This document shows, piece by piece, positions 10,131 through 51,385 of a stretch of DNA of 64,000 nucleotides; position 1 is the stretch's first letter; each line of letters starts with the position of its first letter. A program made the translations under genes and the position numbers. The notes under the pieces were generated by a model. It was given only the letters and a program-made list of their open reading frames with translations. It had not been told where the DNA came from and did not search any database. Source of the DNA: Candidatus Nanoarchaeia archaeon (GTDB lineage Archaea > Nanobdellota > Nanobdellia > SCGC-AAA011-G17 > JACPNG01); assembly GCA_028714375.1 (NCBI GenBank), contig JAQTMK010000001.1:136988-200987 (forward strand). Reading direction: 5' to 3'.

Positions 10131-10329
10131 AAAAGTAGCAAAAAAAGTTTTAAGCAAAAGAAACAGAGAATTAGCAAAAAGAGCTGCAAAAATAACTGTA
10201 AGGGAAGTTAGAAGAGTTGCACCAAAAGCAAGAAGAGAAGTTGAAAAAATATATCACTTTGGCAAGAGTGAAGCAAAAAAGATAATAATAGAGATTAAGA
10301 GATCTCCAAAAAAGAAGAAAAAGAAATGA
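10117..10329 (+). CDS. small Lys/Arg-rich basic protein (hypothetical)
   Basis: 70 aa, highly basic, poly-K tail. Overlaps the upstream stop and shares ATGA with the downstream peptidase gene, suggesting translational coupling. Confidence 0.35.
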   Translation: MKKIRKVAKKVLSKRNRELAKRAAKITVREVRRVAPKARREVEKIYHFGKSEAKKIIIEIKRSPKKKKKK

Positions 10330-11174
10330 TTTTTATAATTTTAGCTTTGATTGGAGTAGTCGGTCTAATTTTAGCTTCTTATTTTGATATTAAAACTAGG
10401 GAAATACCAAACATAATCAGTTTTACTATGATTGCTTTGGGATTAGGATTGAGATTAATCTATTCAGTCATAAACAAAGAGATTATGTTTTTTGTTTACG
10501 GATTGTTGGCATTCGGTATATTTTTCCTGTTTGGAGTTTTGATGTATTACACAAAACAATGGGGGGGAGGAGACACAAAATTATTAATGGCTCTTGGAGC
10601 ACTATTTGGAACTTGGTCAACAGATTATTTTTTATTATCTCTGATAATAACCTTAATTTTCGTAGCCGCTGTTTATGGATTAGTCTGGGCAGTTTATCTT
10701 ACAATCAAGAATTACAGGAAGTTTAGCAAGATTTTCAAGCAAATATATTATAATAAAAAAATCCAAACAATTATTATTTCTGTCTTCGCAGTTTTATTGA
10801 TATTGGTTTCTTTGATTATCGAAGACAAAACTCTCGGATTTGTGCTTACAATCATGGCCTTTTTGGTTTTGATTTATTATTATCTTCTGATTTATCTCAA
10901 GGTTGTTGAAAAAGCATGCATGGAAAAAACAATCCCGGTATCAAAACTGACAGAAGGCGATTGGGTAATCCATGATGTTAAAAAAGGAAATAAACTGATT
11001 TATTCTAAAAAATATAATATAACAAAAAAACATATTGAAATTTTAAATAAATATAAAATCAAAGAAGTTACAATCAAAGAAGGATTTCCTTTTGTTCCAG
11101 CTTTTCTTCTGGCTTTAATAATTAATTTTTTAATAAGTAAAATTTTGGTTAGATTTTTGCTTAGTTTTATGTAA
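10326..11174 (+). CDS. A24-family prepilin/preflagellin peptidase (PibD/FlaK-like)
   Basis: Polytopic membrane protein with the catalytic Asp in DIKTREIPN and the second catalytic motif WGGGDTKLLMALG. Confidence 0.75.
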   Translation: MIFIILALIGVVGLILASYFDIKTREIPNIISFTMIALGLGLRLIYSVINKEIMFFVYGLLAFGIFFLFGVLMYYTKQWGGGDTKLLMALGALFGTWSTDYFLLSLIITLIFVAAVYGLVWAVYLTIKNYRKFSKIFKQIYYNKKIQTIIISVFAVLLILVSLIIEDKTLGFVLTIMAFLVLIYYYLLIYLKVVEKACMEKTIPVSKLTEGDWVIHDVKKGNKLIYSKKYNITKKHIEILNKYKIKEVTIKEGFPFVPAFLLALIINFLISKILVRFLLSFM

Positions 11175-20907: not shown

Positions 20908-21570
20908 TTACTTTAAATTATTTAAATCTATCTCAGCTTTGATAACCTGATTCTCATAATTAATCTCAACAATAACTTTTGTTTTTTCCTTGTTTAAAAC
21001 TTTAAAATCATAACTTTTGTCAAAACATGCTTCTAATTCTTTTTTCTCTTCATCATCCTTTAGATTTTCCTTTACACTAATTAAACAGTCTCTTCTGTAA
21101 GATTTATTAAATTCCTTGAAATCAAACAAAACAAAATCATATGAAAAATCTAAATTTTTACTGTAGGTTATCTTTCCTTCTTTTTCCTGATATGAAATAA
21201 TCCCGTCAGTCCAGTAAATCCTGTCTTTGGTTTTCCCAATTATTTTTCCATTTATGATTGAAATCTCATAGTTTGTAGGCATGTTATTTAATTTAAGCAA
21301 TTTATAAAATTCATTTGTAAATTGGTTCTTGAAATCATACTCTTCATTATAGTTTTTTGAAGCCTTTTCAGCACTAATTCTTACAGAAGAATCAAGATAA
21401 AACAATTCTGCTTCAACATCATTATACGCATCTATCAAGCTTAAGGAATTATCTCCAACTTCTTTTAATCCAGTTCTTTTAATATCAAACAAAAACATTG
21501 CAGATAAAAGTATTAGGATTATTCCGATTGTTGCCAAAGGCAATGTCATGTCAGTTCCTTTCTTATTCAT
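20908..21570 (-). CDS. pilin-like protein with class III signal peptide
   Basis: Internal start MNKKGTDMTLPLATIGIILILLSAMFLF (KG then hydrophobic helix). The ORF-track start is 8 codons further upstream. Confidence 0.5.
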   Translation of the reverse strand: MNKKGTDMTLPLATIGIILILLSAMFLFDIKRTGLKEVGDNSLSLIDAYNDVEAELFYLDSSVRISAEKASKNYNEEYDFKNQFTNEFYKLLKLNNMPTNYEISIINGKIIGKTKDRIYWTDGIISYQEKEGKITYSKNLDFSYDFVLFDFKEFNKSYRRDCLISVKENLKDDEEKKELEACFDKSYDFKVLNKEKTKVIVEINYENQVIKAEIDLNNLK

Positions 21571-22069
21571 CTTTTTCAGTTCTTGCAATTGCAAGTTTAA
21601 TTTTTACAAGTTTATCCTGATAAGGATATTTTACTTCAGCTTCGCTTTTTATTGGGAATTGGTTTAGCATTTTATCTTCCCACATATCTTCATTATAACC
21701 TGCTCCGAGTGGAACAATATACTCATCATAAATCTCTCTTTCATCAATAAACATCTTCCATAAACATTCTTCATTAATTTTGCAATAACCATTAATCAAA
21801 GGTTTCATAACAGCTATGATTTTGCTTTCATCCTCTTCGTTTTCAATAACAAAATCAGATAAGTATTGATCCTCAACTTTTGTTTTTAATAAATTAATAA
21901 GAAGCAGATTAACATCCTCGTCTACTCCTTTAGTGATAATTTTTTCTTCAATATCAGAGCCTTTCTTAAAACTTGAACTTAAACTAAAAAAGAAAAGAGC
22001 TAAGATTAACACAAATGCAAATATGGAAAGAATATCTTTTAATGGAAATACCTCACCTCTCTTATTCAT
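21563..22069 (-). CDS. pilin-like protein with class III signal peptide
   Basis: MNKRGEVFPLKDILSIFAFVLILALFFFSL. Confidence 0.55.
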   Translation of the reverse strand: MNKRGEVFPLKDILSIFAFVLILALFFFSLSSSFKKGSDIEEKIITKGVDEDVNLLLINLLKTKVEDQYLSDFVIENEEDESKIIAVMKPLINGYCKINEECLWKMFIDEREIYDEYIVPLGAGYNEDMWEDKMLNQFPIKSEAEVKYPYQDKLVKIKLAIARTEKDE

Positions 22070-22496
22070 CTAATATTACCCCCATTTCTAAAAGTTTAAG
22101 TTTGTTTTCAACAAGAACATATTTTTTTTCAGAATAACAATTCTTTTCTAATTTACATAAATTTAATTGGTCTTTATAACTTTTAATATCGTTGGAAATT
22201 TCCTTATCACCAATTTTTGCATAAATTAAATTATCAGTACTGATGCAGTTTTTTAATCTCTCTTCTGTAAATTTATTCATATCGATTGTTCCAGGATAAA
22301 CTCTTAGGTCTTCCAAAGCAAAGCAATCACTGCTGTAAAACAATCTCTTCATCATTAAGTCAGATTCAAAATTACCAACCTTAATCTCTTGATTCACAGC
22401 TAAGTGTAATACAGCCACAACTGCAGCAACCATAATACCCAAAACAACCAAAATCAATACCTGATAAGGTAATTTTTCTCCCAAATCAGAACTCAT
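22062..22496 (-). CDS. small secreted/membrane-anchored protein, possible atypical prepilin
   Basis: MSSDLGEKLPYQVLILVVLGIMVAAVVAV: Gly then charged residues then a hydrophobic helix, but no K/R before the G. Confidence 0.4.
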   Translation of the reverse strand: MSSDLGEKLPYQVLILVVLGIMVAAVVAVLHLAVNQEIKVGNFESDLMMKRLFYSSDCFALEDLRVYPGTIDMNKFTEERLKNCISTDNLIYAKIGDKEISNDIKSYKDQLNLCKLEKNCYSEKKYVLVENKLKLLEMGVILDE

Positions 22497-22822
22497 GAAC
22501 TCACCTCAAACTTTCTTTCTTCCTGTTTCCAGTTTAATTTAGTAACATTACTTGGATAATAATTAAAATTAAACAACCCCTGTTTAACTAAATTTATTGT
22601 TATTTCCAAATCATCATCCTTATTTATATCATAAGATATCTTTGAATTCTTGCTAAGATAAAGTGTATCCAAAGTTAAACCAATATCAATTGTATTTGCT
22701 CTTCTCTCAAGAGCTCTTGAATTTTTAAAACTAGCAACATAATATCCCAATGAAGCAACCACAATTACAGCAACCAGTATTGAAAAAAGCATAAATAACT
22801 GCATCTCCCCTCTTTTTTTCAT
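22493..22822 (-). CDS. pilin-like protein with class III signal peptide
   Basis: Internal start MKKRGEMQLFMLFSILVAVIVVASLGYY. The ORF-track start 16 codons upstream is probably spurious. Confidence 0.5.
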   Translation of the reverse strand: MKKRGEMQLFMLFSILVAVIVVASLGYYVASFKNSRALERRANTIDIGLTLDTLYLSKNSKISYDINKDDDLEITINLVKQGLFNFNYYPSNVTKLNWKQEERKFEVSS

Positions 22823-22859
22823 GTTAAGAATTAGATTTATAGTATTTATATTAGTTTTG

Positions 22860-23339
22860 TTAAGCAACACTATACTTTCCAGATTCGAGTTTTACGTTTA
22901 CCGGTCTCAAGTCATCAAGATTGGATAAGACTACCCCAGAACTAATAAAATCATAACTCAAAACTTTACAAACCATAAATTTTTGTTCTTCAGTATTATA
23001 AACACAAATGCAGGATAATTCTTTGCACTGGATGTTTTTTTCTATCACCTTATCATCAAAAGCTTTCAAAGAACCTTCAGCTGAAAATTTATTCTTTGCA
23101 TATATTGTGTATTCATCGCTTATCTGCATCGGAATACTTGTTCCTTTGCCTTCTTCAAGTCCTTTTAATGTAGTATATAGATCGTTAAAACTGTTATCAG
23201 TTGCAGAATCCATTTCAACTTCATCAGGAATTAATGTTTTGTATAAATCTGTTAAAAATGTAGCTACAACCAAAGTTACAATAATACCTAAGATTAATAA
23301 GATAAGAAACTTTAAAGTCATTAAACCTCTTTTATTCAT
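22860..23339 (-). CDS. pilin-like protein with class III signal peptide
   Basis: MNKRGLMTLKFLILLILGIIVTLVVATFL; preceded by the duplicated promoter element. Confidence 0.55.
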   Translation of the reverse strand: MNKRGLMTLKFLILLILGIIVTLVVATFLTDLYKTLIPDEVEMDSATDNSFNDLYTTLKGLEEGKGTSIPMQISDEYTIYAKNKFSAEGSLKAFDDKVIEKNIQCKELSCICVYNTEEQKFMVCKVLSYDFISSGVVLSNLDDLRPVNVKLESGKYSVA

Positions 23340-23368
23340 TAAATTAAAATAAAAAAGAAATATATAAA
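23337..23368 (-). promoter_or_regulatory. duplicated promoter/start element, copy 1 (includes ATG of gene 22860-23339)
   Basis: Identical 32 nt CATTAAATTAAAATAAAAAAGAAATATATAAA. On the coding strand this is TTTATATA (TATA-box-like) about 22-29 nt upstream of the ATG. Confidence 0.6.
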
Positions 23369-23386
23369 CTTAATTAAAAATGAACT

Positions 23387-23722
23387 TTAGTAATTTACTG
23401 CCTTTTTATATTTATTTGATTTTAGTGGGGGATGAATTAAGTCGGGAAGGACATTATAATAGAACTTTGCCCAATAATCTTGGATAATCCTGTGTGAGTG
23501 GCCATTAAAGAAGCCAAGTTTTCTTACTTCCTCTTGTAATTTTATTTCAAGATCCCTGAGATACCCATCTACGATTGGTATTGATGGGATTTCTTCCCCC
23601 CCAGAAGAATAAGATATGTCCCTTTTAAATTCTGCTAAGATTTTATTTCTATTCTGATCAATAAACTTACAAAACTCCTCATAACAACTTTTCTCTAAAC
23701 TTTTAAGATTTGAATTATCCAT
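23387..23722 (-). CDS. hypothetical cytoplasmic protein inside the pilin-like operon
   Basis: 111 aa, no signal peptide; preceded by copy 2 of the duplicated promoter. Confidence 0.45.
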   Translation of the reverse strand: MDNSNLKSLEKSCYEEFCKFIDQNRNKILAEFKRDISYSSGGEEIPSIPIVDGYLRDLEIKLQEEVRKLGFFNGHSHRIIQDYWAKFYYNVLPDLIHPPLKSNKYKKAVNY

Positions 23723-23751
23723 TAAATTAAAATAAAAAAGAAATATATAAA
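23720..23751 (-). promoter_or_regulatory. duplicated promoter/start element, copy 2 (includes ATG of gene 23387-23722)
   Basis: Exact 32-nt match to 23337-23368. Confidence 0.6.
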
Positions 23752-23760
23752 ATTATGTTT

Positions 23761-24120
23761 TTATGCACAAGAAACCGTACAACTGATTAACTCATTGCAA
23801 TGAACTCCACTCTTAACCACACTTGTTGTAGGATCTAAAATATCAAACTCTTTTTTGCAATAAGCAGAATCCGATGCAATGAATTTTTGACTATTTGTTC
23901 TTTGCTCTTCTTTAGCTGCATCACAATACTGATTGCAGAACTGAATTGCTAATGATCTGTCAGTTCCAGCTGTTCCCTGGAAAAATATTCCTTTTATCTT
24001 ATCAGTTGTTCCTTTAAATCCGTATAGGAAGAAAAATACAACTGCAACTAAAACAATAATTACGATAATCGCTATAATAATTGTATTAAGAGAAATTTCC
24101 GCTCCTTTTTTATTAAACAT
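23761..24120 (-). CDS. archaeal type IV pilin-like protein (canonical class III signal peptide)
   Basis: MFNKKG|AEISLNTIIIAIIVIIVLVAVVFFFLYGF: KG-A cleavage-site pattern and a long hydrophobic helix. The track start (24129) appears to be GTG; the ATG at 24120 is preferred. Confidence 0.65.
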   Translation of the reverse strand: MFNKKGAEISLNTIIIAIIVIIVLVAVVFFFLYGFKGTTDKIKGIFFQGTAGTDRSLAIQFCNQYCDAAKEEQRTNSQKFIASDSAYCKKEFDILDPTTSVVKSGVHCNELISCTVSCA

Positions 24121-24218
24121 ACATTTCACCTCTAATTCAATTAAAACTTCTTGTTTTATTTAAATGTTTTGGTATACTATTTATAAAGAATTTTAAAGCC
24201 TTATAAAAAGAAAATAGT

Positions 24219-24755: not shown

Positions 24756-25358
24756 TCACACACTAAATTGTTTAATTCTTTTTCTCCTTCTCCAGTACCA
24801 GTAAGCAACAGCGATTACAACAATACCAACAAGTAAACTGATAGTCTCAAAGTATTTATCAATAAAAGCGATGATAGGATTTCCAAAGAACATAATCAAG
24901 CCACCAACTAAGAAGAATCTCAATCCTCTTCCGATTATAGAATATATTATTAAAGTTCTTAATTTAATATAAAAGACACCAGAAGCAATTGTAAATACTT
25001 TATATGGAATTGGGGTAAAACCAGCAATGAAGATTGCCAAACCCCCATGTTTTTCAAATAATCTATGGACTTTGTCTATTTTTTCCTGTTTGAATAACTT
25101 ATTTAATATTGGTCTCCCACCAACATAACCAATCCCATATCCAAATATAGCCCCCAAAACACTACCAACTGTGCAGACTAAAGAAAACCATAAAGCGTTT
25201 TTAGGATCAGCTAAACATAATATAATCAGGAGAATGTCTGGTGGAACAGGAAAAAAACTTGATTCAATAAATGCTAAAACAAATAACCCCAAACTTCCTA
25301 AAGGCTGAAAAGTTAATTTTGTCCAGTCTACCAAACTAGTTATTAAACCCATAAACAA
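24756..25358 (-). CDS. DedA/YqaA (SNARE-associated, TVP38) family membrane protein
   Basis: FIESSFFPVPPDILLI and following TM pattern typical of DedA/YqaA proteins. Confidence 0.7.
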   Translation of the reverse strand: MFMGLITSLVDWTKLTFQPLGSLGLFVLAFIESSFFPVPPDILLIILCLADPKNALWFSLVCTVGSVLGAIFGYGIGYVGGRPILNKLFKQEKIDKVHRLFEKHGGLAIFIAGFTPIPYKVFTIASGVFYIKLRTLIIYSIIGRGLRFFLVGGLIMFFGNPIIAFIDKYFETISLLVGIVVIAVAYWYWRRRKRIKQFSV

Positions 25359-25389: not shown

Positions 25390-26304
25390 TTAAATCTTAT
25401 CGCCCTGTAAAATCCATAAATCTTCAGTTGTTAATTTTTTCTTATTCTTAATTTTTTGTTCTATTTCTCTTTTTCTTCCTTCAATAAACTCATTAGGTTC
25501 TTCCCTTTTCTCAAAAACTCTTTTTGGTCTTTTAATTATCTGAGGTCTAGGTATTTCTGCCTGTGAAACTTTTAACTGCAATAATTTTTCTTTTAGATCA
25601 TTGTTTAATATTGAAAATTCTTTTTTGAATTTGATAAAGTTGTCAAAAGCATCTTCCTGTTCTTTTTTGATTCTGTTTATCTCCTTGCTTATTTTTAAGA
25701 ATTCAGAATAACTTTCATTGTTTCTTAATTCCTCAAGTTTGCTGTGAAAATCATTGGCTATCTTTCTTTTATCTTTGAAATCCTTTCTTAGGTTAATATA
25801 TTTTTCATTTAGGTTTGTTTGAGTATTAGATTTTTTTAGTTTGTCTTTTAATTCTTTTAATTTAACCATTGTGGCTTTTTCTTTTGAAAAACTTAGAACA
25901 TCTGTTTGTATACTTAATTCTAATCTTTCAATGGTTTCTTTGATGTTTTTGTCTTCCTTGTCAAATCTTACCTTTCTTTTCTCTTCGCTGACTTTTTTAA
26001 GTTCTTCAGCAATGATTTTGACTTCAGCATTGAATTTATCTCTTTCTTTCTTTATATTTTTAAGTTCTTTGTCTATTTCCTTCTTTTTATCCTGTATTGC
26101 CTTTGCCTTTGTTATGTTTTCAGCAAGAACTTTCTTTAATTCTTCTTTCTTCGCAAACCAGGTTTCTTTTTCAGCATTAATAGAATTTAGTTTATCTTTT
26201 AGCTCTTTTATTTCGTTTTTCAATGAATCTAGTTTTTCCTTATCCATTTTTTGTGTCCCAATCAAAACAGTTGTCTTAAGATATAATTTCTGTAAAATCA
26301 CCAC
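25390..26304 (-). CDS. Lys/Glu-rich coiled-coil protein (hypothetical)
   Basis: 304 aa, almost entirely heptad-like K/E repeats. Confidence 0.45.
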   Translation of the reverse strand: MVILQKLYLKTTVLIGTQKMDKEKLDSLKNEIKELKDKLNSINAEKETWFAKKEELKKVLAENITKAKAIQDKKKEIDKELKNIKKERDKFNAEVKIIAEELKKVSEEKRKVRFDKEDKNIKETIERLELSIQTDVLSFSKEKATMVKLKELKDKLKKSNTQTNLNEKYINLRKDFKDKRKIANDFHSKLEELRNNESYSEFLKISKEINRIKKEQEDAFDNFIKFKKEFSILNNDLKEKLLQLKVSQAEIPRPQIIKRPKRVFEKREEPNEFIEGRKREIEQKIKNKKKLTTEDLWILQGDKI

Positions 26305-26314
26305 TTTAAAAAGG

Positions 26315-26938
26315 TTATGCTTTTATCTTATTTATCAGATATTTGATATCATCTATTAAAGGAATTGATTTTACCTTAAATCTGTAAACCAGAAATACCC
26401 AGACCAGGAAAACATAGACTGTAGAGAGAACATTCCAGATTAAAAAATGTAAATTCTCAAACATGTTGATATTGTTATTCAAAAAATAATATAATAAAAC
26501 AGTAATCCTTATTATATTGCCAATAAATATAAATAAACAACCTGAAATAAATATTTTTAGTCGTTTAACCCACTTCATTCTTGTTAACATCACCAAAATA
26601 AATAACAAAAAGTAAGCAGAGGTTGCGATACAGGCAGGAATAAAACTTAATATAGTATTATTATATACTAAATAATCAGAACCAATCACAATTCCTTTTG
26701 AAATCCAGAAAACTCCGCTTAATAACAGTGTAGGTTTTAAAAAAATAAAATAAAACAAATTAAAAGGGATCAATAAAATAACCAATACTAAACAAATTCT
26801 TAATATTAAGTCTTTATAATATCTCACAAGACCAAACAATAACCTAAATATAAAAACCTTTTTAAGAAAACAAAACCTGATAATTACAATGAAAAAATAT
26901 TTTATTCCTATAATTTCGCTTTTTGTTTTGACAATCAT
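26315..26938 (-). CDS. exosortase/archaeosortase-family-like polytopic membrane protein (tentative, small ArtE-like size)
   Basis: Multi-TM protein with a conserved-looking Cys in a TM (IPACIATSAYF) and an N-x-x-R motif (FIGNIIRITVL), as in the exosortase/archaeosortase family. The 5' end overlaps the divergent PAP2 gene, so the true start is likely internal or non-ATG. Confidence 0.4.
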   Translation of the reverse strand: MIVKTKSEIIGIKYFFIVIIRFCFLKKVFIFRLLFGLVRYYKDLILRICLVLVILLIPFNLFYFIFLKPTLLLSGVFWISKGIVIGSDYLVYNNTILSFIPACIATSAYFLLFILVMLTRMKWVKRLKIFISGCLFIFIGNIIRITVLLYYFLNNNINMFENLHFLIWNVLSTVYVFLVWVFLVYRFKVKSIPLIDDIKYLINKIKA

Positions 26939-27470
26939 CGGTTCTTTTTTTATAGATCAGGAAGTTGCTATAGGAATCTTTAAGTTACAGGACCCAATTT
27001 TAACAACTATTTTTGTGTATTTTAGTTATATTTTCACAAATCTGACAATATTCTTGTTTGGTGCTTTATTCTTAATAAGAAACAAGACAATGATCCCCTA
27101 TATGACATTAGGGTATCTGGTTCATGGATTTTTTCATATTATAATTAAATTTTTTATAAACAGACCAAGACCATTTATAGAGATTTCACTAAAACAAATA
27201 GAGGGGTTTTCATATGATTTTGCTTCTTGGAATACAACTTTTCCTAGTTTTCATGTTGCAGCGATGTTCTTTATGATACCTTTTATATTCAAACTAAAGA
27301 GCAAGTTAAGATATGTTTGGGTAGGTCTGGCAGTTTTAATGGGCATTGTAAGGATTTATTCGGGGGTTCATTATTTAAGTGATATCTTGGCTGGTGCACT
27401 TGTTGGTTTAGCATTTGGTTATTTGACACTTTATATCTACGAAAAAAAAGCCCGAAACCTTTTTAAATAA
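26889..27470 (+). CDS. PAP2-family (type 2 phosphatidic acid phosphatase-like) membrane phosphatase
   Basis: Three PAP2 motifs: KFFINRPRP, PSFH, SGVHYLSDI. Confidence 0.75.
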   Translation: MKKYFIPIISLFVLTIIGSFFIDQEVAIGIFKLQDPILTTIFVYFSYIFTNLTIFLFGALFLIRNKTMIPYMTLGYLVHGFFHIIIKFFINRPRPFIEISLKQIEGFSYDFASWNTTFPSFHVAAMFFMIPFIFKLKSKLRYVWVGLAVLMGIVRIYSGVHYLSDILAGALVGLAFGYLTLYIYEKKARNLFK

Positions 27471-27826: not shown

Positions 27827-28333
27827 ATGAAAAAAATAATATTCATAATCATAATATTTCTGCTTTTAACAACCACAATCTTTGGCAAAGGATTTGGATT
27901 TGATATGTCCTTCGGATATTTTTTTGGAGAATTCAACGAAATAGACTCAGATTTTGTATGGGGGGCGGGCGGTTCTTACTCTATTGATGATACCCTTACA
28001 TTAAATATTAGTATTATAAGATCTGCCAATGAGATAAGAGAACCTGAAAATAAAGAAATTAAAATAGATTATTTCTTGTTCGGAGCCACAATCCAACTAT
28101 CCAAAATAATATTTATTGGTGGAGGCATATCATATACTTCTCTCCGTGAAAAAACAGAATCCGGAACTCTGGATGATATGGGATTTGGAGGATTTATTGA
28201 AACTGGTGCCAGATATCTAATCGATGAGGATATCAACAACATAACAGTCGGCGGGAGAGTTATGTACAGTTACAATAAGGTAGAAGATGAAAACATCGGA
28301 GGAATCTTTCTGATATTTACTATTGGATTTTAA
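27827..28333 (+). CDS. secreted protein with outer-membrane beta-barrel-like sequence pattern
   Basis: Signal peptide, then alternating hydrophobic/polar beta-strand-like segments (GARYLI, GGRVMYSY, IGGIFLIFTIGF) and a C-terminal Phe. GGAGG ribosome-binding site upstream. Confidence 0.45.
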   Translation: MKKIIFIIIIFLLLTTTIFGKGFGFDMSFGYFFGEFNEIDSDFVWGAGGSYSIDDTLTLNISIIRSANEIREPENKEIKIDYFLFGATIQLSKIIFIGGGISYTSLREKTESGTLDDMGFGGFIETGARYLIDEDINNITVGGRVMYSYNKVEDENIGGIFLIFTIGF

Positions 28334-30776: not shown

Positions 30777-32042
30777 ATGAATAAAACAATGAAAATTTTG
30801 AGTGCAGTATTTTTGGCAGTTGTTGCTTTAATAGCTACACCTATTGTAAGTGCTGCTCAAATAGACATCAACTCTGTTGAAGCATGTGGTATTGAATACG
30901 ACACTACAGTATCAACCATTTATGCTGAAAGAGGAGAAACATGCGACGTAATCGTTAAATTTACTGCTAACGCAGATATTGACGACCTTAAACTTAAAGC
31001 TTGGATTGGTGGTTACGAATACGATGATATTGAAGATGTAACATCAATGTTTGACGTTGAGTCAGGCGTTACATACAAGAAATCATTGAGTTTGGAATTA
31101 CCAGACGATATGGATGCTTCTGAAGACTATACAATTAATGTAGAAGTTTACAACAAGGATACAGAACTTGTTGATAAAGAATATACATTAAGAGTTAAAG
31201 AAGGCAGACATAACCTTCAGATACAGGATGTTATCTTAAGACCTGATTCAACCATTGAAGCAGGAAGATCCTTATTTGCAACTATTAGAGTTGAAAATAT
31301 GGGAGACAGAAAAGAAGAAGATATCCAAGTTAACATTGAAATTCCAGACTTAGGCGTTTCAGCAAGAGACTACATTGACGAATTATCAGCAGATGAAGAT
31401 TCTGATGCTAATGAAGACAATGAAGATGAAGAGGACTCTGCTTCAAGTGATGAAATTTACTTGAAAATACCAGAAAACGCAATGACTGGAGCTTACGATG
31501 TAATTGTTAAAGTTGTTTACTCAAGAGGACATGAAGAAGTAACAAAAACCGAAACAATTTACGTTGTTGGTAATACCCCAATAGTTGAAGAAGGAAAAGC
31601 ATTGGTAAATGTTGATGCAGCTTCAAAGTCAGCTGATGCTGGTGAAGAAGTTAGCTACAAAGTAATGATTGCTAACCTAAACGGAGCAAAACATGTTTAC
31701 ACAGTAGAAGCTACTGGTGCAGATTTGTTTGCAGACGTTGCAGTTGAACCAGGATTTGTAACAATTGAAAAAGGAAATGTTGGAGAATCCTACGTTAAAC
31801 TAAACGTTAAAGAAGGAGCTTCAGATGGTGTTCATCAATTTACCATTAAGGTAAAAGCTGATGATGTAATCGTTGCTGAAAAAACAGTTACCGTAGACGT
31901 AAATGCAGCTAGTGCTTCAAACGCAAAGAAAACATTGGCAATTGCATTCGGAATATTAGTAGTGTTGCTTATCATTATAGCACTTATCTTGGCTTTCAAT
32001 AAAATGAGAAGCTCAGATAGTGATAATGAGAGTTACTACTAA
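30777..32042 (+). CDS. cell-surface protein with CARDB-like domains and C-terminal TM anchor
   Basis: Signal peptide; beta-sandwich-like repeats (DVIVKFTANADIDD, RVENMGDRKEEDIQVNIEIPDLG); acidic linker; C-terminal TM helix followed by basic/Ser-rich tail. Confidence 0.55.
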   Translation: MNKTMKILSAVFLAVVALIATPIVSAAQIDINSVEACGIEYDTTVSTIYAERGETCDVIVKFTANADIDDLKLKAWIGGYEYDDIEDVTSMFDVESGVTYKKSLSLELPDDMDASEDYTINVEVYNKDTELVDKEYTLRVKEGRHNLQIQDVILRPDSTIEAGRSLFATIRVENMGDRKEEDIQVNIEIPDLGVSARDYIDELSADEDSDANEDNEDEEDSASSDEIYLKIPENAMTGAYDVIVKVVYSRGHEEVTKTETIYVVGNTPIVEEGKALVNVDAASKSADAGEEVSYKVMIANLNGAKHVYTVEATGADLFADVAVEPGFVTIEKGNVGESYVKLNVKEGASDGVHQFTIKVKADDVIVAEKTVTVDVNAASASNAKKTLAIAFGILVVLLIIIALILAFNKMRSSDSDNESYY

Positions 32043-32630: not shown

Positions 32631-34664
32631 ATGAGGTTTGATAAATCTATAATTTTCATAACCCTATTAATTCTATTTTCGTTTTCAGTTTCAGCAGAAA
32701 TTGGAACAAGCCCTGACAATTGTAAGGGAAAAGACTTAACCGACCATATTTTTAATGATAATTTAATTACAAATGGTTGGAATAATTTATACCAGCAGAT
32801 GCAGGTTAATGATGTTCATACAATCAGCTTCAAAGGTATAAGCAATGACAATCCAGATCCAATAACAGTAACCTATTCTTTGTTTTACTGTAAAAGAGCA
32901 TGTGATTTGAACGGAGATGGAAAAGTCACTGCAGCAGATGCATGTTCAGATCATTTAGTTCTTCAACAAAAAACAGTCATAGAAGCAAATTCTAAAAAAG
33001 ATATTACTATAAATTTCAAGCCAGCTCAGGAAGGTTGTTATCAGTTAGATTGGGCTGTTGAAAAAATTGAAAACTCTCAGTGTTCTTATTTAGATAAAAC
33101 CTACTGTGAGGATTGTACATTTTTGGCTTATCTTGTAGATACTTCATGTAAGGCAGGTTCAACCCAAACAAGAAAATGTGGTTACTCTGATGTTGGAGAA
33201 TGTAGTTATGGAACTAAAACTTTAACCTGTACAGCCCAGTCACAGTTAATTGGTCCAACAAGTTATTGGAAATATGGAATTTGCATTGGAGCAACCTATC
33301 CAACAACAGAAATCTGTGACCAGAAAGACAATGACTGTGATGGTTTAATCGATGAAGACAATGTTTGTGAAGTTCCAGAATGTGAAGATGGAGAAACACA
33401 AACACAGCAATGTGGAATAACTGATGTTGGAATTTGCGAATACGGACATAAAGAAAAAATCTGTGAGAATGGCTCATGGGGAAATTGGGGTGATTGTATT
33501 GGTGCCATTAATCCTTCAACAGAAATATGTAATCAGTTAGATGATGATTGTGATGGGTTGATAGATGAAGGCGATGTTTGCCCTCCAGAAGAATGTTACA
33601 CTAATGATGACTGTGATAATGGTTTGTATTGTGATGGTGAGGAAATCTGCATAGATAACGAGTGTTATTCAGGAACAGAAATTAATTGTAATTTATACAA
33701 TATTCCAGGAATAAATACTTGCTACAATAGTCCAGACAGCAATCCATACACATTAGATTATAGAAATGCATTTACTTCAACCTGTAACGAAGATTTAGAT
33801 ATGTGTACAATTGGAAGTAGCATAATATCTCATATTTGTTATTATGGTTGTGGAGCAGAATGTATTGATTCTTGTGAAAAAACAGAATGTGATTACTTAG
33901 ATGGTTGCTATGGAAATGATTACTATGATTACAGTGATGTTTCAAACCTATGTAATTCCTGTTTATGTAGTCATAATGAATGTGGTCTTCCAGTAATTTC
34001 TGAAAATGATCCAAGATGTGAACAACCAGAATGTACAGAAGGAGATATTGATATTGTTTCCTGTGGTATGACCGATGTTGGAGAATGCTCTTATGGTCAG
34101 AAACAAAGAATATGTATTGATGAAGAATGGACAGACTGGAGCGAATGCGTTGGAAGTGTAAATCCAACAACAGAAATCTGTGACCAAAAAGACAATGACT
34201 GTGATGGTTTAATCGATGAAGACAAAGTCTGTGAAATATGTGTTCTGAATAAAACCAGACTTGATGGGGAAAATGGATTTATTGATCACATAAATGAATT
34301 TACAAATGAAGACTTTACAAAAAATAAGATTGATTTCAAGGCTTGGGTTTCAAAATCAGACAAGTACACAGGATATGTTATAGTTTCTGTGACAGGAACA
34401 ACCACAGATGGTGGAAGACTTTCTTTGAAATTAAAAGGTAAAGTAAGAAACGTCTATGAAAATACCTGTGAAGCATTTAACGTTGAAAATTCCTGGTGGA
34501 GTTTAGCTACCTACAGAGCACCAAATTCCAAGAAAACAGAAAAAATCCATCTGGATAGCATCTGGTATGAATGGAACAGGGAAACTAATTTGTTAAATGT
34601 CTACGGAATTGGTCCTGACATTGACTTTGAAATAAACAACATTGAAATTGAATCAAAGTACTGA
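32631..34664 (+). CDS. secreted Cys-rich protein with MopE-like 'putative metal-binding' repeats
   Basis: Signal peptide; three ~60-aa repeats each ending C(D/N)QKDNDCDGLIDED; many paired Cys. Confidence 0.6.
   Translation: MRFDKSIIFITLLILFSFSVSAEIGTSPDNCKGKDLTDHIFNDNLITNGWNNLYQQMQVNDVHTISFKGISNDNPDPITVTYSLFYCKRACDLNGDGKVTAADACSDHLVLQQKTVIEANSKKDITINFKPAQEGCYQLDWAVEKIENSQCSYLDKTYCEDCTFLAYLVDTSCKAGSTQTRKCGYSDVGECSYGTKTLTCTAQSQLIGPTSYWKYGICIGATYPTTEICDQKDNDCDGLIDEDNVCEVPECEDGETQTQQCGITDVGICEYGHKEKICENGSWGNWGDCIGAINPSTEICNQLDDDCDGLIDEGDVCPPEECYTNDDCDNGLYCDGEEICIDNECYSGTEINCNLYNIPGINTCYNSPDSNPYTLDYRNAFTSTCNEDLDMCTIGSSIISHICYYGCGAECIDSCEKTECDYLDGCYGNDYYDYSDVSNLCNSCLCSHNECGLPVISENDPRCEQPECTEGDIDIVSCGMTDVGECSYGQKQRICIDEEWTDWSECVGSVNPTTEICDQKDNDCDGLIDEDKVCEICVLNKTRLDGENGFIDHINEFTNEDFTKNKIDFKAWVSKSDKYTGYVIVSVTGTTTDGGRLSLKLKGKVRNVYENTCEAFNVENSWWSLATYRAPNSKKTEKIHLDSIWYEWNRETNLLNVYGIGPDIDFEINNIEIESKY
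33300..33361 (+). repeat. 62-nt intragenic direct repeat, copy 1
   Basis: CCAACAACAGAAATCTGTGACCAGAAAGACAATGACTGTGATGGTTTAATCGATGAAGACAA; one mismatch to the copy at 34164-34225. Confidence 0.8.
34164..34225 (+). repeat. 62-nt intragenic direct repeat, copy 2
   Basis: Near-identical to 33300-33361. Confidence 0.8.
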
Positions 34665-43341: not shown

Positions 43342-43998
43342 ATGAGGAAAATAACAGTATTCATATTGGTTTTAGCATTGCTTTTGATATTTCCAGTAAG
43401 CGCAAAACTTACGGGACAAGCTAGAGGACAGGCTGTAATCAACGTTGACGTTGATGAAGGTAGCACAGAAGTAATCTCAAGAACTGTTTGGGTTAAGAAT
43501 GTAAATGATATTCCGGTTAATGTCGCAATTATTGCAATAGATGATATTGAAGACAGAACAGAAATAGAAGAACCTTCTTTTATACTTCAGCCAGGCCAGG
43601 AAAAAACAGTTAAATATTTATTGAAAATTTCCCAGCCAGGAAATTATTATGGAAAATTAAATATTGGTTTTTCTCCAGCAGATGGTTCTAAAGAAAATGG
43701 AGTAGGAATCTCATTAGCTATAACCGTTATTGCAGATGGTGAGGGTGAAGAATTTGTAAGTCCAGAACCTAATACTGAAGAAATCCCAGAAGATACAGAA
43801 GAAACTCCAGAAGACACAACCGATATCCCTCAGGAAGAAGACACAACTGATGGAGAAGGAGTAGATGTATTCGGAGGAGGACAAAATCCTGTAACACCTA
43901 AAACAAACATAAATTGGCCACTCATAATTTTCATAGGTTTACTTTTAATCGTAATCGCAGCAGGGGTGTTTGCTTTTTTAAGGGGAGGAAAAAAATGA
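43342..43998 (+). CDS. secreted protein with C-terminal TM anchor and basic tail
   Basis: Signal peptide; acidic PEDTEETPEDT linker; C-terminus WPLIIFIGLLLIVIAAGVFAFLRGGKK. Confidence 0.5.
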   Translation: MRKITVFILVLALLLIFPVSAKLTGQARGQAVINVDVDEGSTEVISRTVWVKNVNDIPVNVAIIAIDDIEDRTEIEEPSFILQPGQEKTVKYLLKISQPGNYYGKLNIGFSPADGSKENGVGISLAITVIADGEGEEFVSPEPNTEEIPEDTEETPEDTTDIPQEEDTTDGEGVDVFGGGQNPVTPKTNINWPLIIFIGLLLIVIAAGVFAFLRGGKK

Positions 43999-46900
43999 AG
44001 AAAGTAGTTTTTTTATTTGCTTTGTTATTAACAGTTTCATGTGTAAGTGCTTGGGATGTAGCTTATGTGGTTACTAACCCATCAACTGCAGCACAGGAAC
44101 CAATAACAGTGTTGGAAAACGAGGGATATAATGTAGAAGTTATTGATGATTCTGCATTACTAACAACAAATTTCAGTAATTATGATTTAATTGTTGTTGC
44201 AGATCAGAACTTTCCATATCCAGAAAGAATTCCAGTAACCTCCCACAGTACAGTAATTTTAAGTTCTAATGATGGTGATGTTTTAACTTGGGGTCTAAGT
44301 ACCTCAGTTGCAGATCAGACAAGCAGTCAACCAGAAAAAGTAGTTAATAATGATCCTACCAGTCCAATAACAGAAGGACTGCCCTCTGAAATTCAGGTTT
44401 ATACAACTGGAGGAGTTTCAGCAGGCCTGTCATACTTACCTTCTTCAGATAAAGCTGGAAAAATGAAGGTTATTGCTTCAACTTATTTCAGCAGCAATAT
44501 AAATGATGGAATAATTGCAACAGCATCTCCAGGAGATGTTTTAAAAATCTACAATAGTGGTTGGAAATACACAACCGTAAATTCAAGAATATGTTATTTT
44601 GGTATTAATACTCCAGCATACTGGACAAGCGATGCAGAAACATTATTCATTAATTGTGCAACATGGTCAGCATTAGGAGTAGATAATGATAATGATGGTT
44701 TCTACTCAGATGAAGACTGTGATGATACAAACGCAGATATTAATCCAGATGCAGAAGAAACCTGTAACGGAGTAGATGATAATTGTGATTTAATTATCGA
44801 TGAAGAAAACTCATTAGGATGTACTGATTATTACTATGATTTTGATCAGGATACTTATGGAGTATTCTTATCTAAGTGTTTATGTTCACCAAACGCATTT
44901 TATGATTCAGAAACAAACGATGACTGTAATGATAACAATATAAATATACATCCAGACGCACAGGAATTGTGTAATGGAATAGACGATAGTTGTGATGATA
45001 TCATTGATGAAGACTTAATTGAACCTTTGTCAGACAACCAAAAAGGAATCTGTAAAAATTCTGTAAAAATCTGTGAAGGAACTTCAGGATGGACAAATCC
45101 AGATTACACAGAACTGGAAGATTATGAAAATCCAGAATTAAGTTGTGATGGTTTAGATAATAACTGTGACGGAACAGTTGATGAAGATTTAGCAACAACT
45201 TATTATAAAGATTTAGATGAAGATACCTATGGAAGTAAAACAGTAACAATCCAGTCTTGTGATATTGTGGATGGTTATGTTGAAAACAATGATGATTGTA
45301 ATGATAATAATGCAGATATAAGTCCAGACGGAATTGAAGAATGTAATGGTATTGATGACAACTGTGACGGAGCCATCGATGAAGATGATATCTGTGAAAT
45401 AACAATTTATTATTGTGATGCAGATGCAGATTTACATTTAAGCTTGACACAATCAGGAACTTGTGATACCTATAACTGTGTTCCAACAGGATGTTCAACA
45501 ACACCCGGAGATGATTGTAATGACCATAATGCAAATATGTATTTAGGAAAAGCAGAAACCTGTGATGGTCTGGACAATGACTGTGATTATGTTATTGATG
45601 ATGGTGTAAAAACAACTTATTATCAGGATAAGGATGGAGATCTTTACGGAAATTCAGGAGTAACCAAACAGGCATGTTCTGCTCCAACAGGATATTTATT
45701 GGATAAGACAGATTGTAATGATAACTTTGCTACAATTCACCCAGGAGCAACAGAAACCTGTAATGGAATTGACGATGATTGTGATGGTTTGATTGATGAG
45801 GGAGGAGTTTGTGCAGTAAAGACTTACTATTGTGATGATGATTCAGACAGTTATCTAAGCTTAGATATCTCAGGAACATGTAACACCTATAATTGTGTTC
45901 CAGAAGACTGTTCAGAAACCAGCGGAACAGATTGTAACGACGATGATTCAGATATGTATCCAGGAAACATAGAAGTTTGTGATAACTTAGACAATGACTG
46001 TGATGGTTTAATTGATGAATCTCTTACACAAATAACAACTTGTGGACTAGGAGAATGTTCAGACAACACAGGAATAGAAACTTGTTCAGCAGGAGAATGG
46101 ATTAATGATACTTGTGATCCTTATGCTGGAGCAGTAGCTGAGACTTGTGATGGTTTAGATAACAACTGTGATGGTGAAACAGATGAAGGAGTAACTACAG
46201 AATATTATGAAGATTCAGATAATGATACCTATGGAGATGCATTAAGCATTTTAGATGCATGTTCTCTTCCAGCAGGTTACTCTGTAAATAATCTAGATTG
46301 TGATGATTCAAATGCAAATATGTATCCAGGAAATCCAGAAGTTTGTGATGGTGATGATAATGATTGTGATGGAACAATTGATGAAGATTTATCTGCACCA
46401 TTAAATACAAACCAAAATGGAGTATGTTTTGAATCAAATCAAACCTGTCAGGGAGAATTAGGATGGATCGATACTTATTCAACAATCTCAACTTATCAAG
46501 AAACAGAAGAAGCCTGTGACAGTTTAGATAATGATTGTGATGGAATAGTTGATGATGGTGTTAAAACAACATTCTATGAAGATTCAGATAATGATACTTA
46601 TGGAAATGCAACAAGCTCACAGGATGTATGTACTAAACCAACAGGTTATGTTTTAGATGATACTGATTGTGATGATAGTCAAAATACAATTTATCCTGGA
46701 GCTACAGAAGTTCCATACGATTCAATTGACCAAGATTGTAGTGGTGCTGATTTAACTGATGTGGATGCAGACGGATATGATTATACTACAGATTGCAATG
46801 ATAATGATCCAGATGTAAATCCTGGAGAAACAGAATCCTGTAACACAATTGATGATGATTGTGACGGAACAATTGATGAAGAAGATTCAACAGGATGTTC

Positions 46901-49801: not shown

Positions 49802-51385
49802 ATGAGAAAGCTAGCAATAATGTTTTTAGCAGTATTTGTTGTTTTGGCTGGTATAGCTTCAGCAACAATAGTTAACACTGTTGACGCTAACGATGCATAT
49901 GTAGACACAGGCATTGATGGGTGTACAAGTGATAGTTGCTATATATTTTACGAAGACGTAACTGGGAAAATTTCTTTAACCACAGATTTTACAGGAACAA
50001 TCGCATGGGATTTAACTGGTAATCCATCTTGGTTAAGCAAATCATCTGCAATAGGAACCACAATATATCTAACAGGGACTCCTTCAAGTGATGATTATGA
50101 TTTTAAGGGAACCACTATTACAGTTACAGATGGTAATGTAAGTGAGACCTACTCAATCAGAGTTTACCCAGACTTCTGTGATAGAGAAGATGATGACCTT
50201 AAAGTATCAAATAGTTATGTATCAATTGGAAGTTTAGACTTCGATGATGATGACTATACAATTTTTGATAAGGTAGATACTTCAATTGAAGATGTAAATG
50301 CAGAAAAAGAAGATCTTGTTGATGTAAATGCACAGGTATGCTTATATAATGTAAATTCAAATGAAGAGATTGATTGTTGGAGTGCTTCAGAAGAAATTGA
50401 CATTGATGAAGATGAATCAGAAGATTTTGACATCAGCTTTGAGATTCCAAACGTGGAAGAAATTGGGGATAAAAAAGATTACAAACTCTTTGCAGTTATC
50501 CAAGCAGATGCAGACGATTCAGAAATACCAGTTTGTATGTTTGAATCCGAAGATATAAATATTGAAAGGGAAAAGTACGATGTATCAATTACAGATGCAT
50601 TCATAAACCCAACTTCAGTAAAAGCAGGAGAAACATTTGATGTAACTGTTGATTTTGAAAACGTTGGAAGTAAAGACGATGATAGTGTATATGTTGTTGT
50701 TAAGGAAAATACATTAGGACTTAACGAAAAGTCAACAACTTATGACCTAGAAAATTACGATGGTAATGACAACAGCGCTACAGCAAGATTTACTTTAAGT
50801 GTTCCAGAAGATGCAGCTAATAAACAATACTCAATTGAAGTTATCGTTTACTTTGATGATGGAGACGGTACTGATTCAGAGTTTGTTATGTTGGAAGTTA
50901 AAGGACAAAGCACAGCAACACCAGTAGTTCCAAAAGACTCAATTTTATTGAGTGCAGGGGAAGCAGTTGCTGAAGGTAATGCATTTAGCTTGCCAGTTAC
51001 AGTAACAAACAAAGCTGAAAGTCAGGAATTAAGTGTTGAATTAACCAATTTAGATGATTGGGCAACAGCTGGAAGTGCTAAAACTCAGTTACTTGACAAA
51101 GATCAGAGTACAACTTTCTACTTTTACATAACACCTAATGAAGGAATTACTGGAACCAGAACAGCTACAATAAACGTAAGATCTGAATCTGGAAACATTT
51201 TGAAAACACAGTCAGTTTCCTTGAAGTTAGGAGAAGAAGTAGTTGAAGAAGATGTAAACGTGAGCGGAGGCATCAAAGACTTTTTCAGTAACAATAGCAA
51301 AGTCTTATGGATAATTGGAGACATAGTCTTGATTATTCTGGCTGTAGTATTGCTAAAGTTCTTGTTTACTAAGAAGAAGAAATAA
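49802..51385 (+). CDS. cell-surface protein with CARDB-like domains and C-terminal TM anchor plus KKKK tail
   Basis: Signal peptide; acidic regions; CARDB-like INPTSVKAGETFDVTVDFENVGSKDDDSVYVVVKE; C-terminus VLWIIGDIVLIILAVVLLKFLFTKKKK. Confidence 0.55.
   Translation: MRKLAIMFLAVFVVLAGIASATIVNTVDANDAYVDTGIDGCTSDSCYIFYEDVTGKISLTTDFTGTIAWDLTGNPSWLSKSSAIGTTIYLTGTPSSDDYDFKGTTITVTDGNVSETYSIRVYPDFCDREDDDLKVSNSYVSIGSLDFDDDDYTIFDKVDTSIEDVNAEKEDLVDVNAQVCLYNVNSNEEIDCWSASEEIDIDEDESEDFDISFEIPNVEEIGDKKDYKLFAVIQADADDSEIPVCMFESEDINIEREKYDVSITDAFINPTSVKAGETFDVTVDFENVGSKDDDSVYVVVKENTLGLNEKSTTYDLENYDGNDNSATARFTLSVPEDAANKQYSIEVIVYFDDGDGTDSEFVMLEVKGQSTATPVVPKDSILLSAGEAVAEGNAFSLPVTVTNKAESQELSVELTNLDDWATAGSAKTQLLDKDQSTTFYFYITPNEGITGTRTATINVRSESGNILKTQSVSLKLGEEVVEEDVNVSGGIKDFFSNNSKVLWIIGDIVLIILAVVLLKFLFTKKKK

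Follow-up and report, generated by a model that had tools for sequence, protein, structure and literature searches.

The archaeosortase ArtA of Haloferax volcanii removes the PGF-CTERM helix at the C-terminus of the surface-layer (S-layer) glycoprotein, and is needed for lipid attachment of that protein (PMC7157517, PMC6098224); its residues Cys173, Arg214 and Arg253 are experimentally critical (PMC9263693). ArtA-dependent cleavage and lipidation also need PssA and PssD, whose genes show synteny with artA in Methanosarcina; the proposed acceptor is an ethanolamine lipid (PMC7157517). The catalytic triad proposed for the exosortase/archaeosortase family is Cys/Arg/His (Haft preprint, 10.1101/2023.06.07.544157). 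Here we describe a gene of this family in a 64,000-nucleotide stretch of a Candidatus Nanoarchaeia archaeon genome (contig JAQTMK010000001.1, positions 136,988 to 200,987; this whole stretch, with a G+C content of about 31%, is called the window below). By its sequence, gene 26315-26827 on the minus strand of the window encodes a pacearchaeosortase, a member of the DPANN-archaeal branch of the exosortase/archaeosortase membrane-embedded cysteine (trans)peptidases, and we consider it likely that its cognate substrate, processed in the manner of ArtA substrates, is the putative S-layer protein encoded by window gene 49802-51385.

Both ArtA and the window sortase are polytopic enzymes of the same superfamily in which Cys and Arg lie 41 residues apart (by arithmetic on published residue numbers, not by alignment), both have an S-layer protein with a tripartite C-terminal signal as main substrate (presumed for the window), and both have a genomic or functional link to lipid-handling genes. 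They differ in size, ArtA having about 300 amino acids (aa; 912-bp gene) and the window sortase 170, and in the lipid genes concerned, which are PssA/PssD in methanogens for ArtA and PAP2/DedA at the window sortase. Unlike ArtA substrates, the candidate substrates in the window have no PGF tripeptide and match no PGF-CTERM model. ArtA has been tested experimentally, whereas pacearchaeosortase is known here from sequence.

The initial annotation likened the protein to the exosortase/archaeosortase family, and profile hidden Markov model (HMM) searches bear this out. The NCBIfam model NF033505, "pacearchaeosortase", matches with 105.8 bits against a cutoff of 80 (E = 2.5e-30) over profile positions 3-166 of 167, and the exosortase/archaeosortase signature TIGR04178 matches residues 100-183 of the longest open reading frame (ORF) with 32.3 bits against a cutoff of 23 (E = 9e-8); a Pfam search of the protein gave no match. 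Weak cross-matches over the same Cys-to-His core are seen with exosortase H (XrtH, TIGR04177; 20.8 bits) and heimdallarchaeosortase (NF045528; 18.8 bits), separate branches with their own sorting signals. Membership in these two was rejected at their cutoffs of 86 and 130, respectively, and membership in the ArtA/PGF-CTERM group was rejected on HMM scores. ArtE (TIGR04124) belongs to the same superfamily and is of similarly small size (model length 153 versus 167), and the protein had been called small enough to be ArtE-like; this part of the annotation is withdrawn, as the ArtE model (cutoff 95) has no match to the window protein at E <= 1, gives the related pacearchaeosortase of locus L027 (see below for locus numbers) only 20.3 bits, and the protein belongs to the separately named pacearchaeosortase family. 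A chance ORF or pseudogene was also rejected, the reading frame being intact and every family-invariant residue present. The family is already catalogued: NCBI curated models name it, and the exact window sequences are so annotated.

The longest ORF, 26315-26938 (minus strand, 207 aa), which holds the motifs IPACIATSAYF and FIGNIIRITVL, overlaps the divergent ORF 26889-27470 (plus strand) by exactly 50 nucleotides (nt). This overlap had been reported correctly and the start left undecided; the overlap arises because the longest ORF was taken, and the start can be assigned. The true start is the GTG at 26827, which gives a protein of 170 aa encoded 61 bp from the PAP2 gene, because homologues start at this position in the alignment (MRYYKDL, MRYYRDL, MGYYRNL and the like), the NF033505 match starts at long-ORF residue 43, which is profile position 3, the NCBI entry for the same protein (MDD5331379.1, P0001; named pacearchaeosortase, 99% identity over the shared part of the longer query) is 170 aa long, and a TATA-like element lies upstream. 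This AT-rich TTTATAT, at 26854-26848 on the minus strand and 21-27 nt upstream of the GTG, may be a promoter element and would fit a short-leader archaeal transcript.

Fifty homologues of the sortase were found, several of them named pacearchaeosortase by NCBI, and in an alignment of 35 that are 28-69% identical to the window protein, residues R10, T33, C66, A68, A71, Y72, L78, N104, R107, I108, H127, W131, W143, P156 and D160 are invariant. The membrane-embedded Cys and the N-x-x-R motif that had been picked out are C66 and N104 to R107, and are hallmarks of the family. A Cys/Arg/Asn triad had been suggested as well, and all three residues do align as invariant; however, the triad proposed for the family has His in place of Asn, His127 is also invariant, and Asn104 is, as judged from this alignment, an extra invariant residue and not the third triad member. 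An AlphaFold2 (AF2) model made from the alignment (predicted local distance difference test score, pLDDT, 86; predicted template modelling score, pTM, 0.80) has about five long membrane helices (residues 2-19, 24-44, 64-80, 86-118 and 122-149), along with an amphipathic helix at the C-terminus and, at residues 52-61, a short beta-hairpin that is predicted to be extracytoplasmic. Hydropathy and loop charges show K/R-rich stretches in loop 83-91 (RMKWVKRLK) and the C-terminal tail, and no K or R in loop 117-125. C66, R107 and H127 are predicted to lie at the outer-leaflet ends of helices 3, 4 and 5, since the positive-inside rule, applied to these loop charges, puts them outside.

Substrates were sought throughout the 64-kb window, where five proteins end in a hydrophobic helix; two of these, a UbiB kinase and a helix-turn-helix (HTH) regulator, are not surface proteins. 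The other three, 49802-51385, 30777-32042 and 43342-43998, each have an N-terminal signal peptide and a C-terminal hydrophobic helix, and all three had been put forward as candidate substrates. The first is the one that we retain as such. It matches NF033506, "PACE-CTERM-PROT, putative S-layer protein", with 144.9 bits against a cutoff of 110, its NCBI product name is 'putative S-layer protein', and it alone of the three has the NF033506 family tail, ...LWIIGDIVLIILAVVLLKFLFTKKKK, which combines a conserved motif, a hydrophobic helix and a KKKK tail. Its sorting signal at 51296-51382, SKVLWIIGDIVLIILAVVLLKFLFTKKKK, has WIIGD at 51308-51322. Homologues share the tail ...(F/L)W-I-I-G-D-I-V-L-V-I-L-A-I-F-F-I-K-L-L-F-basic, and among 1.84 billion cluster representatives a profile search recovered 4205 relatives, with this 'GD' tail present in at least 76 of the best 149. 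When a GD-tail profile was run against the last 45 residues of 2025 ORFs, 49802-51385 scored 55.1 bits (E = 4e-16) and was the sole window match, the best non-S-layer tail reaching 9.5 bits; within 10 kb of 71 sortases, all tail-profile matches above about 10 bits are on S-layer-family proteins or fragments of them. With the 46-residue tail alignment as sole query, no match at E <= 10 was obtained among 5.8 billion proteins. There is no PGF or PEF tripeptide before the C-terminal helices of the three candidates, and no PGF-, PEF- or other named CTERM NCBIfam domain is found on any of them at E <= 10. The substrate types that define the ArtA/PGF-CTERM and ArtC/PEF-CTERM systems are thus absent among them. 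The earlier statement that the signal differs from PGF/PEF-CTERM is therefore correct, and its supposed novelty is not, as it is already curated as PACE-CTERM-PROT.

The other two candidates fare less well. Protein 43342-43998 has no family match and no homologue in any of 77 loci, and scores -0.8 and -2.8 bits against the tail profiles. Protein 30777-32042 is a possible second substrate. Its NF033506 score of 77.2 bits is below the cutoff of 110, its tail gets 1.0 bit from the WxxGxxN tail profile and is absent among the GD tail-profile matches listed, and the tail is not of the helix-plus-basic layout that had been described for all three, since NKMR is followed by an extension that is acidic overall, ...SSDSDNESYY. 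It is placed, with its orthologues in L005 and L011, in a subfamily of its own whose proteins have about 420 aa, and members of this subfamily are the S-layer-like genes nearest the sortase in the window clade (3.8 kb away in the window, 1.7 kb in L005 and 1.4 kb in L011); their tails (...AFNKMRSSDSDNESYY, ...AFSRMRNEGEEEGYY and ...AIRAFR) are matched by no tail profile. We note that longer post-helix cytoplasmic tails with an aromatic end (...ESYY, ...EGYY, ...STEF, ...SIAY, ...KEEF) are found in some S-layer-family proteins, including 30777-32042, L005 5024-6292 and proteins of L013, L014, L019, L021, L040, L042 and L058, and the recurrence of this C-terminal F/Y end suggests that it may be a second, cytoplasm-facing signal.

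To collect related loci, which are numbered with the prefix L, one genome from each prokaryotic species was scanned with a 12-sequence subset and the motif PACIA[GT]SAY, a procedure biased to members with the exact motif. The scan returned 66 loci, all from DPANN archaea by title except one contig labelled Patescibacteria. Counting was by custom profiles, with the 55 loci that have enough flank as denominator where not stated otherwise. An S-layer-family (NF033506) gene precedes the sortase gene in the same orientation at a distance of up to 2 kb in 45 of 55 loci; in 27 of 55 this distance is 300 bp at most, and many lineages have gaps of 14-53 bp. Downstream, 28 of 68 loci have a DedA gene no more than 200 bp away, and 12 loci show a DedA start that overlaps the stop codon of the sortase by exactly 4 nt. 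A divergent PAP2 gene is no farther than 300 bp from the sortase in 13 of 55, rearranged loci included. NCBIfam spot checks confirm the NF033506/NF033505 pairs in L052 (760 and 220 bits), L024, L014 and L027. The S-layer proteins fall into tail classes, the commonest being LIWIIGxxNLILIILIIVVAVRLSRR and others NWFIYLIILVN... and long tails with EF or AY at the end, and these classes are tracked by sortase subclades.

In most Pacearchaeota the genes for the S-layer protein, the sortase and DedA are arranged head to tail, in some cases with a divergent PAP2 gene. In the main clade, all-against-all clustering gives the conserved order Spt5-L11-L37ae-prefoldin-SepF-m127-[S-layer]-(PAP2)-[sortase]-(DedA)-m226-m187-[877-aa S_layer_C protein]-HTH-m169, where m127, m226, m187 and m169 are unannotated ORF clusters labelled by their median length in residues. 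Because this clade shares one long syntenic block, we gave the locus counts less weight and relied on the rearranged clade that consists of the window, L001, L003, L005, L006, L011 and L012. These seven loci are without the syntenic block, none of its families being found anywhere in the 64-kb window, and they show four gene arrangements; PAP2 and/or DedA genes, together with a DUF7121 gene found beside the sortase only in this clade, are still next to it. Neither a PAP2 nor a DedA gene is present within 6 kb of three GD-tail S-layer genes that are remote from any sortase. The lipid genes thus follow the sortase and not the S-layer gene when the block breaks up. The PAP2 and DedA genes near the window sortase had been noted in the initial annotation as a lipid-modification context; both are confirmed by Pfam (see the table), and this context is conserved across loci. 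A second assembly, GCA_028713535.1, repeats the unlinked arrangement of the window, with a sortase (P0002) and a GD-tail S-layer gene (P0052) on different contigs.

Two side observations concern these loci. The 147-kb contig of L055 (JAHYJW010000002.1), titled 'Patescibacteria group bacterium', carries an archaeal S-layer/pacearchaeosortase pair and is probably mis-binned or mislabelled DPANN sequence. In the main Pacearchaeota clade (L007-L074; for example L007 8674-12774), SepF and prefoldin genes lie upstream of the sortase in the long conserved block, membrane-anchored proteins without annotation, one of about 226 aa and one of about 187 aa, are encoded in 60 and 56 of 71 loci, respectively, and a protein of about 877 aa with an S_layer_C domain and no C-terminal helix is present in 38 loci, which hints at what may be a two-component S-layer with one anchored subunit.

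Compared with a typical pacearchaeosortase/PACE-CTERM pair, the window pair is alike in that both curated cutoffs are passed, the sortase model is covered over its full length, the lineage is DPANN and the NCBI names are identical. It differs in its scores, which are near the low end (typical members score 160-220 bits with NF033505 and 220-760 bits with NF033506), in its tail, which is the 'GD' variant FWIIGDIVL...K.LF.KKK and not the common LIWIIGxxNLIL...VAVRLSRR, and in gene order, the two genes being 23 kb apart with the syntenic block absent, whereas in most other genomes they are adjacent.

By analogy with ArtA, we suggest that the S-layer protein would be exported by Sec, lose its signal peptide and stay tethered by its C-terminal helix. 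The sortase would then recognise W-I-I-G-D (elsewhere W-x-x-G-x-x-N) at the outer end of this helix; Cys66 would attack to form an acyl-enzyme, the helix and basic tail being cut off, and the new C-terminus would be transferred to a membrane lipid, with water as a less likely acceptor. The most likely task of PAP2 and DedA would be the handling of a lipid required at the outer face, which may be the acceptor lipid or a polyprenyl-phosphate glycan carrier for S-layer glycosylation. Family membership, the invariant residues, the partner protein and its tail, and the conserved neighbourhood are observed directly; cleavage and its site, lipidation and any role of PAP2 and DedA are inferred. Several points weigh against this scheme. 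The window sortase and its presumed substrate gene are 23 kb apart, and the search for substrates was confined to the window, the rest of the genome lying outside it. The adjacency in the main clade is one large syntenic block, so that the locus counts are not independent, and part of the S-layer/sortase linkage could be inherited gene order and not function. Tail signatures vary widely among lineages (GD, WxxGxxN, NWFIY, long F/Y-ended) with no single recognition motif, and the conserved motif is within the helix, whereas in PGF or PEP signals it comes just before the helix. For comparison, no solved structure of the exosortase/archaeosortase family is available, and a literature search found no experiment on any pacearchaeosortase and no paper that mentions pacearchaeosortase or PACE-CTERM.

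The location of the conserved residues, inside the helix and not ahead of it, might mean that the S-layer protein keeps the helix as a permanent anchor, like SlaB in Sulfolobales, with the W-I-I-G-D/N face making helix-helix contacts and the sortase being a release or quality-control protease or having another target. Sortase and substrate genes are indeed unlinked in the window clade, and a transmembrane-anchored S-layer fraction has been discussed for H. volcanii (PMC6098224). We nevertheless regard this as very unlikely: all studied or inferred family members remove such tripartite signals, for a substrate whose processing enzyme sits in the membrane, conservation inside the helix is expected (Haft preprint, 10.1101/2023.06.07.544157), and the same-strand pairing at 14-53 bp and the tail classes that track sortase subclades fit an enzyme-substrate pair. 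A system in which several C-terminally anchored surface proteins, including 30777-32042 and 43342-43998, are processed through a loose helix-plus-charged-tail signal is unlikely too. Signal peptides and C-terminal helices are present in all three candidates, nine ArtA substrates are predicted in H. volcanii (PMC6098224), some sortase-adjacent NF033506 proteins of other lineages have long F/Y-ended tails, and 30777-32042 is a distant NF033506 superfamily member (77 bits) with orthologues 1.4-1.7 kb from the sortase in L005 and L011; but neither of the two additional tails matches the profiles that give 49802-51385 its 55.1 bits, 43342-43998 is without relatives in the 77 loci, and the restriction of tail-profile matches above about 10 bits near 71 sortases to the S-layer family suggests a dedicated system with few substrates.

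As for the lipid genes, DedA (often translationally coupled) and/or an outward-facing PAP2 may deliver or generate the acceptor lipid for C-terminal anchoring at the outer leaflet, because the sortase keeps them after the rest of the neighbourhood has been scrambled; we offer this tentatively and with considerable doubt. It is quite possible, if short of probable, that the two are unrelated to the sortase step, being a polyprenyl-diphosphate phosphatase and a polyprenyl-phosphate flippase that recycle a glycan carrier, and that their place here is inherited order in an envelope-gene island. The best NCBIfam matches of PAP2, with every equivalog model under its cutoff, are undecaprenyl-diphosphate phosphatases, and that of DedA is the UptA polyprenyl-phosphate transporter equivalog (NF052604, 40.6 bits against a cutoff of 250), so that for DedA only general VTT/DedA membership holds; DedA proteins are known to flip undecaprenyl phosphate (PMC12893004), the N-glycosylation sequons NVS and NNS immediately precede the S-layer tail, the main clade has a single long syntenic block in this region, and L014 and L027 have neither PAP2 nor DedA at the sortase locus. 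Against this, PAP2 and DedA stay with the sortase on break-up of the block, 12 loci show translational coupling of DedA to the sortase, and DedA proteins also redistribute phosphatidylethanolamine (PetA, PMC10193950), an ethanolamine lipid being the proposed ArtA acceptor. Either role, acceptor lipid or glycan carrier, could fit, and the two are not separable here.

The main interest of this case is the lead that DedA and PAP2 may take part in the lipid side of archaeosortase-type anchoring. DPANN archaea are generally thought to depend on host-derived lipids. Should PAP2 and DedA supply the acceptor, they would provide a genomic handle on the lipid-donor step of such anchoring in these organisms. 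The pacearchaeosortase family is catalogued yet unstudied, and no publication addresses how the surface layer of DPANN archaea is built and anchored; in the passages, titles and abstracts covered, papers that name both archaeosortase and DPANN draw no connection between them. The tail signatures, the tail classes that track sortase subclades and the persistent DedA/PAP2 linkage are starting points for experiments on substrates and lipid use.

Table. Features of the pacearchaeosortase locus and of its candidate substrates (window coordinates)
Feature	Position	Strand	Description
Pacearchaeosortase coding sequence	26315..26827	-	170 aa, GTG start; NF033505, TIGR04178
Conserved codons of the sortase	Cys66 26630-26632; Asn104 26516-26518; Arg107 26507-26509; His127 26447-26449	-	From the sequence
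Divergent intergenic region, sortase/PAP2	26828..26888		61 bp; sequence read directly
Putative S-layer protein, likely sortase substrate	49802..51385	+	527 aa; signal peptide, acidic immunoglobulin-like/CARDB-like ectodomain, C-terminal sorting signal
S-layer-like paralogue, possible second substrate	30777..32042	+	421 aa; 3.8 kb from sortase; tail ...LAIAFGILVVLLIIIALILAFNKMRSSDSDNESYY
PAP2-family lipid phosphate phosphatase	26889..27470	+	193 aa; PF01569 78.2 bits versus 27.2; divergent from sortase
DUF7121 coiled-coil protein	25390..26304	-	PF23435 29.4 bits versus cutoff 29; likely start M at 26247; directly downstream of sortase
DedA/VTT-domain membrane protein (lipid-scramblase family)	24756..25358	-	PF09335 61.5 bits versus 33.9; 957 bp downstream of sortase

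The PAP2 protein has the catalytic motifs KX6RP, PSxH and RX5HX3D intact, as K87x6RP (KFFINRPRP), PSFH119 and R155x5Hx3D (RIYSGVHYLSD), and its best solved relatives are LpxE (6ebu, E = 1e-11) and PgpB/YodM (5jki). The DUF7121 protein has no apparent signal peptide or membrane segment on reading of its sequence. The gene that adjoins PAP2 on its other side, 27827-28333 (plus strand), encodes a 168-aa secreted protein that ends in ...FTIGF and has weak, sub-cutoff matches to the bacterial outer-membrane beta-barrel models PF13505 (E = 3.7e-4) and NF049866 (E = 7.8e-4), an unexpected finding in an archaeon that has no outer membrane. The sole homologue among the loci is L001 6337-6852, and a single-sequence AF2 model of it, unreliable at a pLDDT of 47, has a signal helix and eight strands.

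Elsewhere in the window, regions 20908-24129 (minus strand) and 10326-11174 (plus strand) contain small ORFs with archaeal type IV pilin-like (class III) signal peptides, with N-termini ...NKKG/AEISLNTIIIAIIV, MNKRG/LMTLKFLILL, MKKRG/EMQLFMLF, MNKRG/EVFPLKDIL and MNKKG/TDMTLPLATIG; they have no Pfam match, and a prepilin peptidase gene (PF01478; FlaK-like) lies 10 kb away. Regions 43914-48476 and 32631-34664 (both plus strand) encode very large secreted proteins with MopE-type putative metal-binding repeats, 15 of them in a 1520-aa ORF (357.7 bits), and thrombospondin type 3 repeats and a CARDB domain are also present in the large secreted proteins. A similar protein of 1636 aa is encoded next to the S-layer gene in L077.

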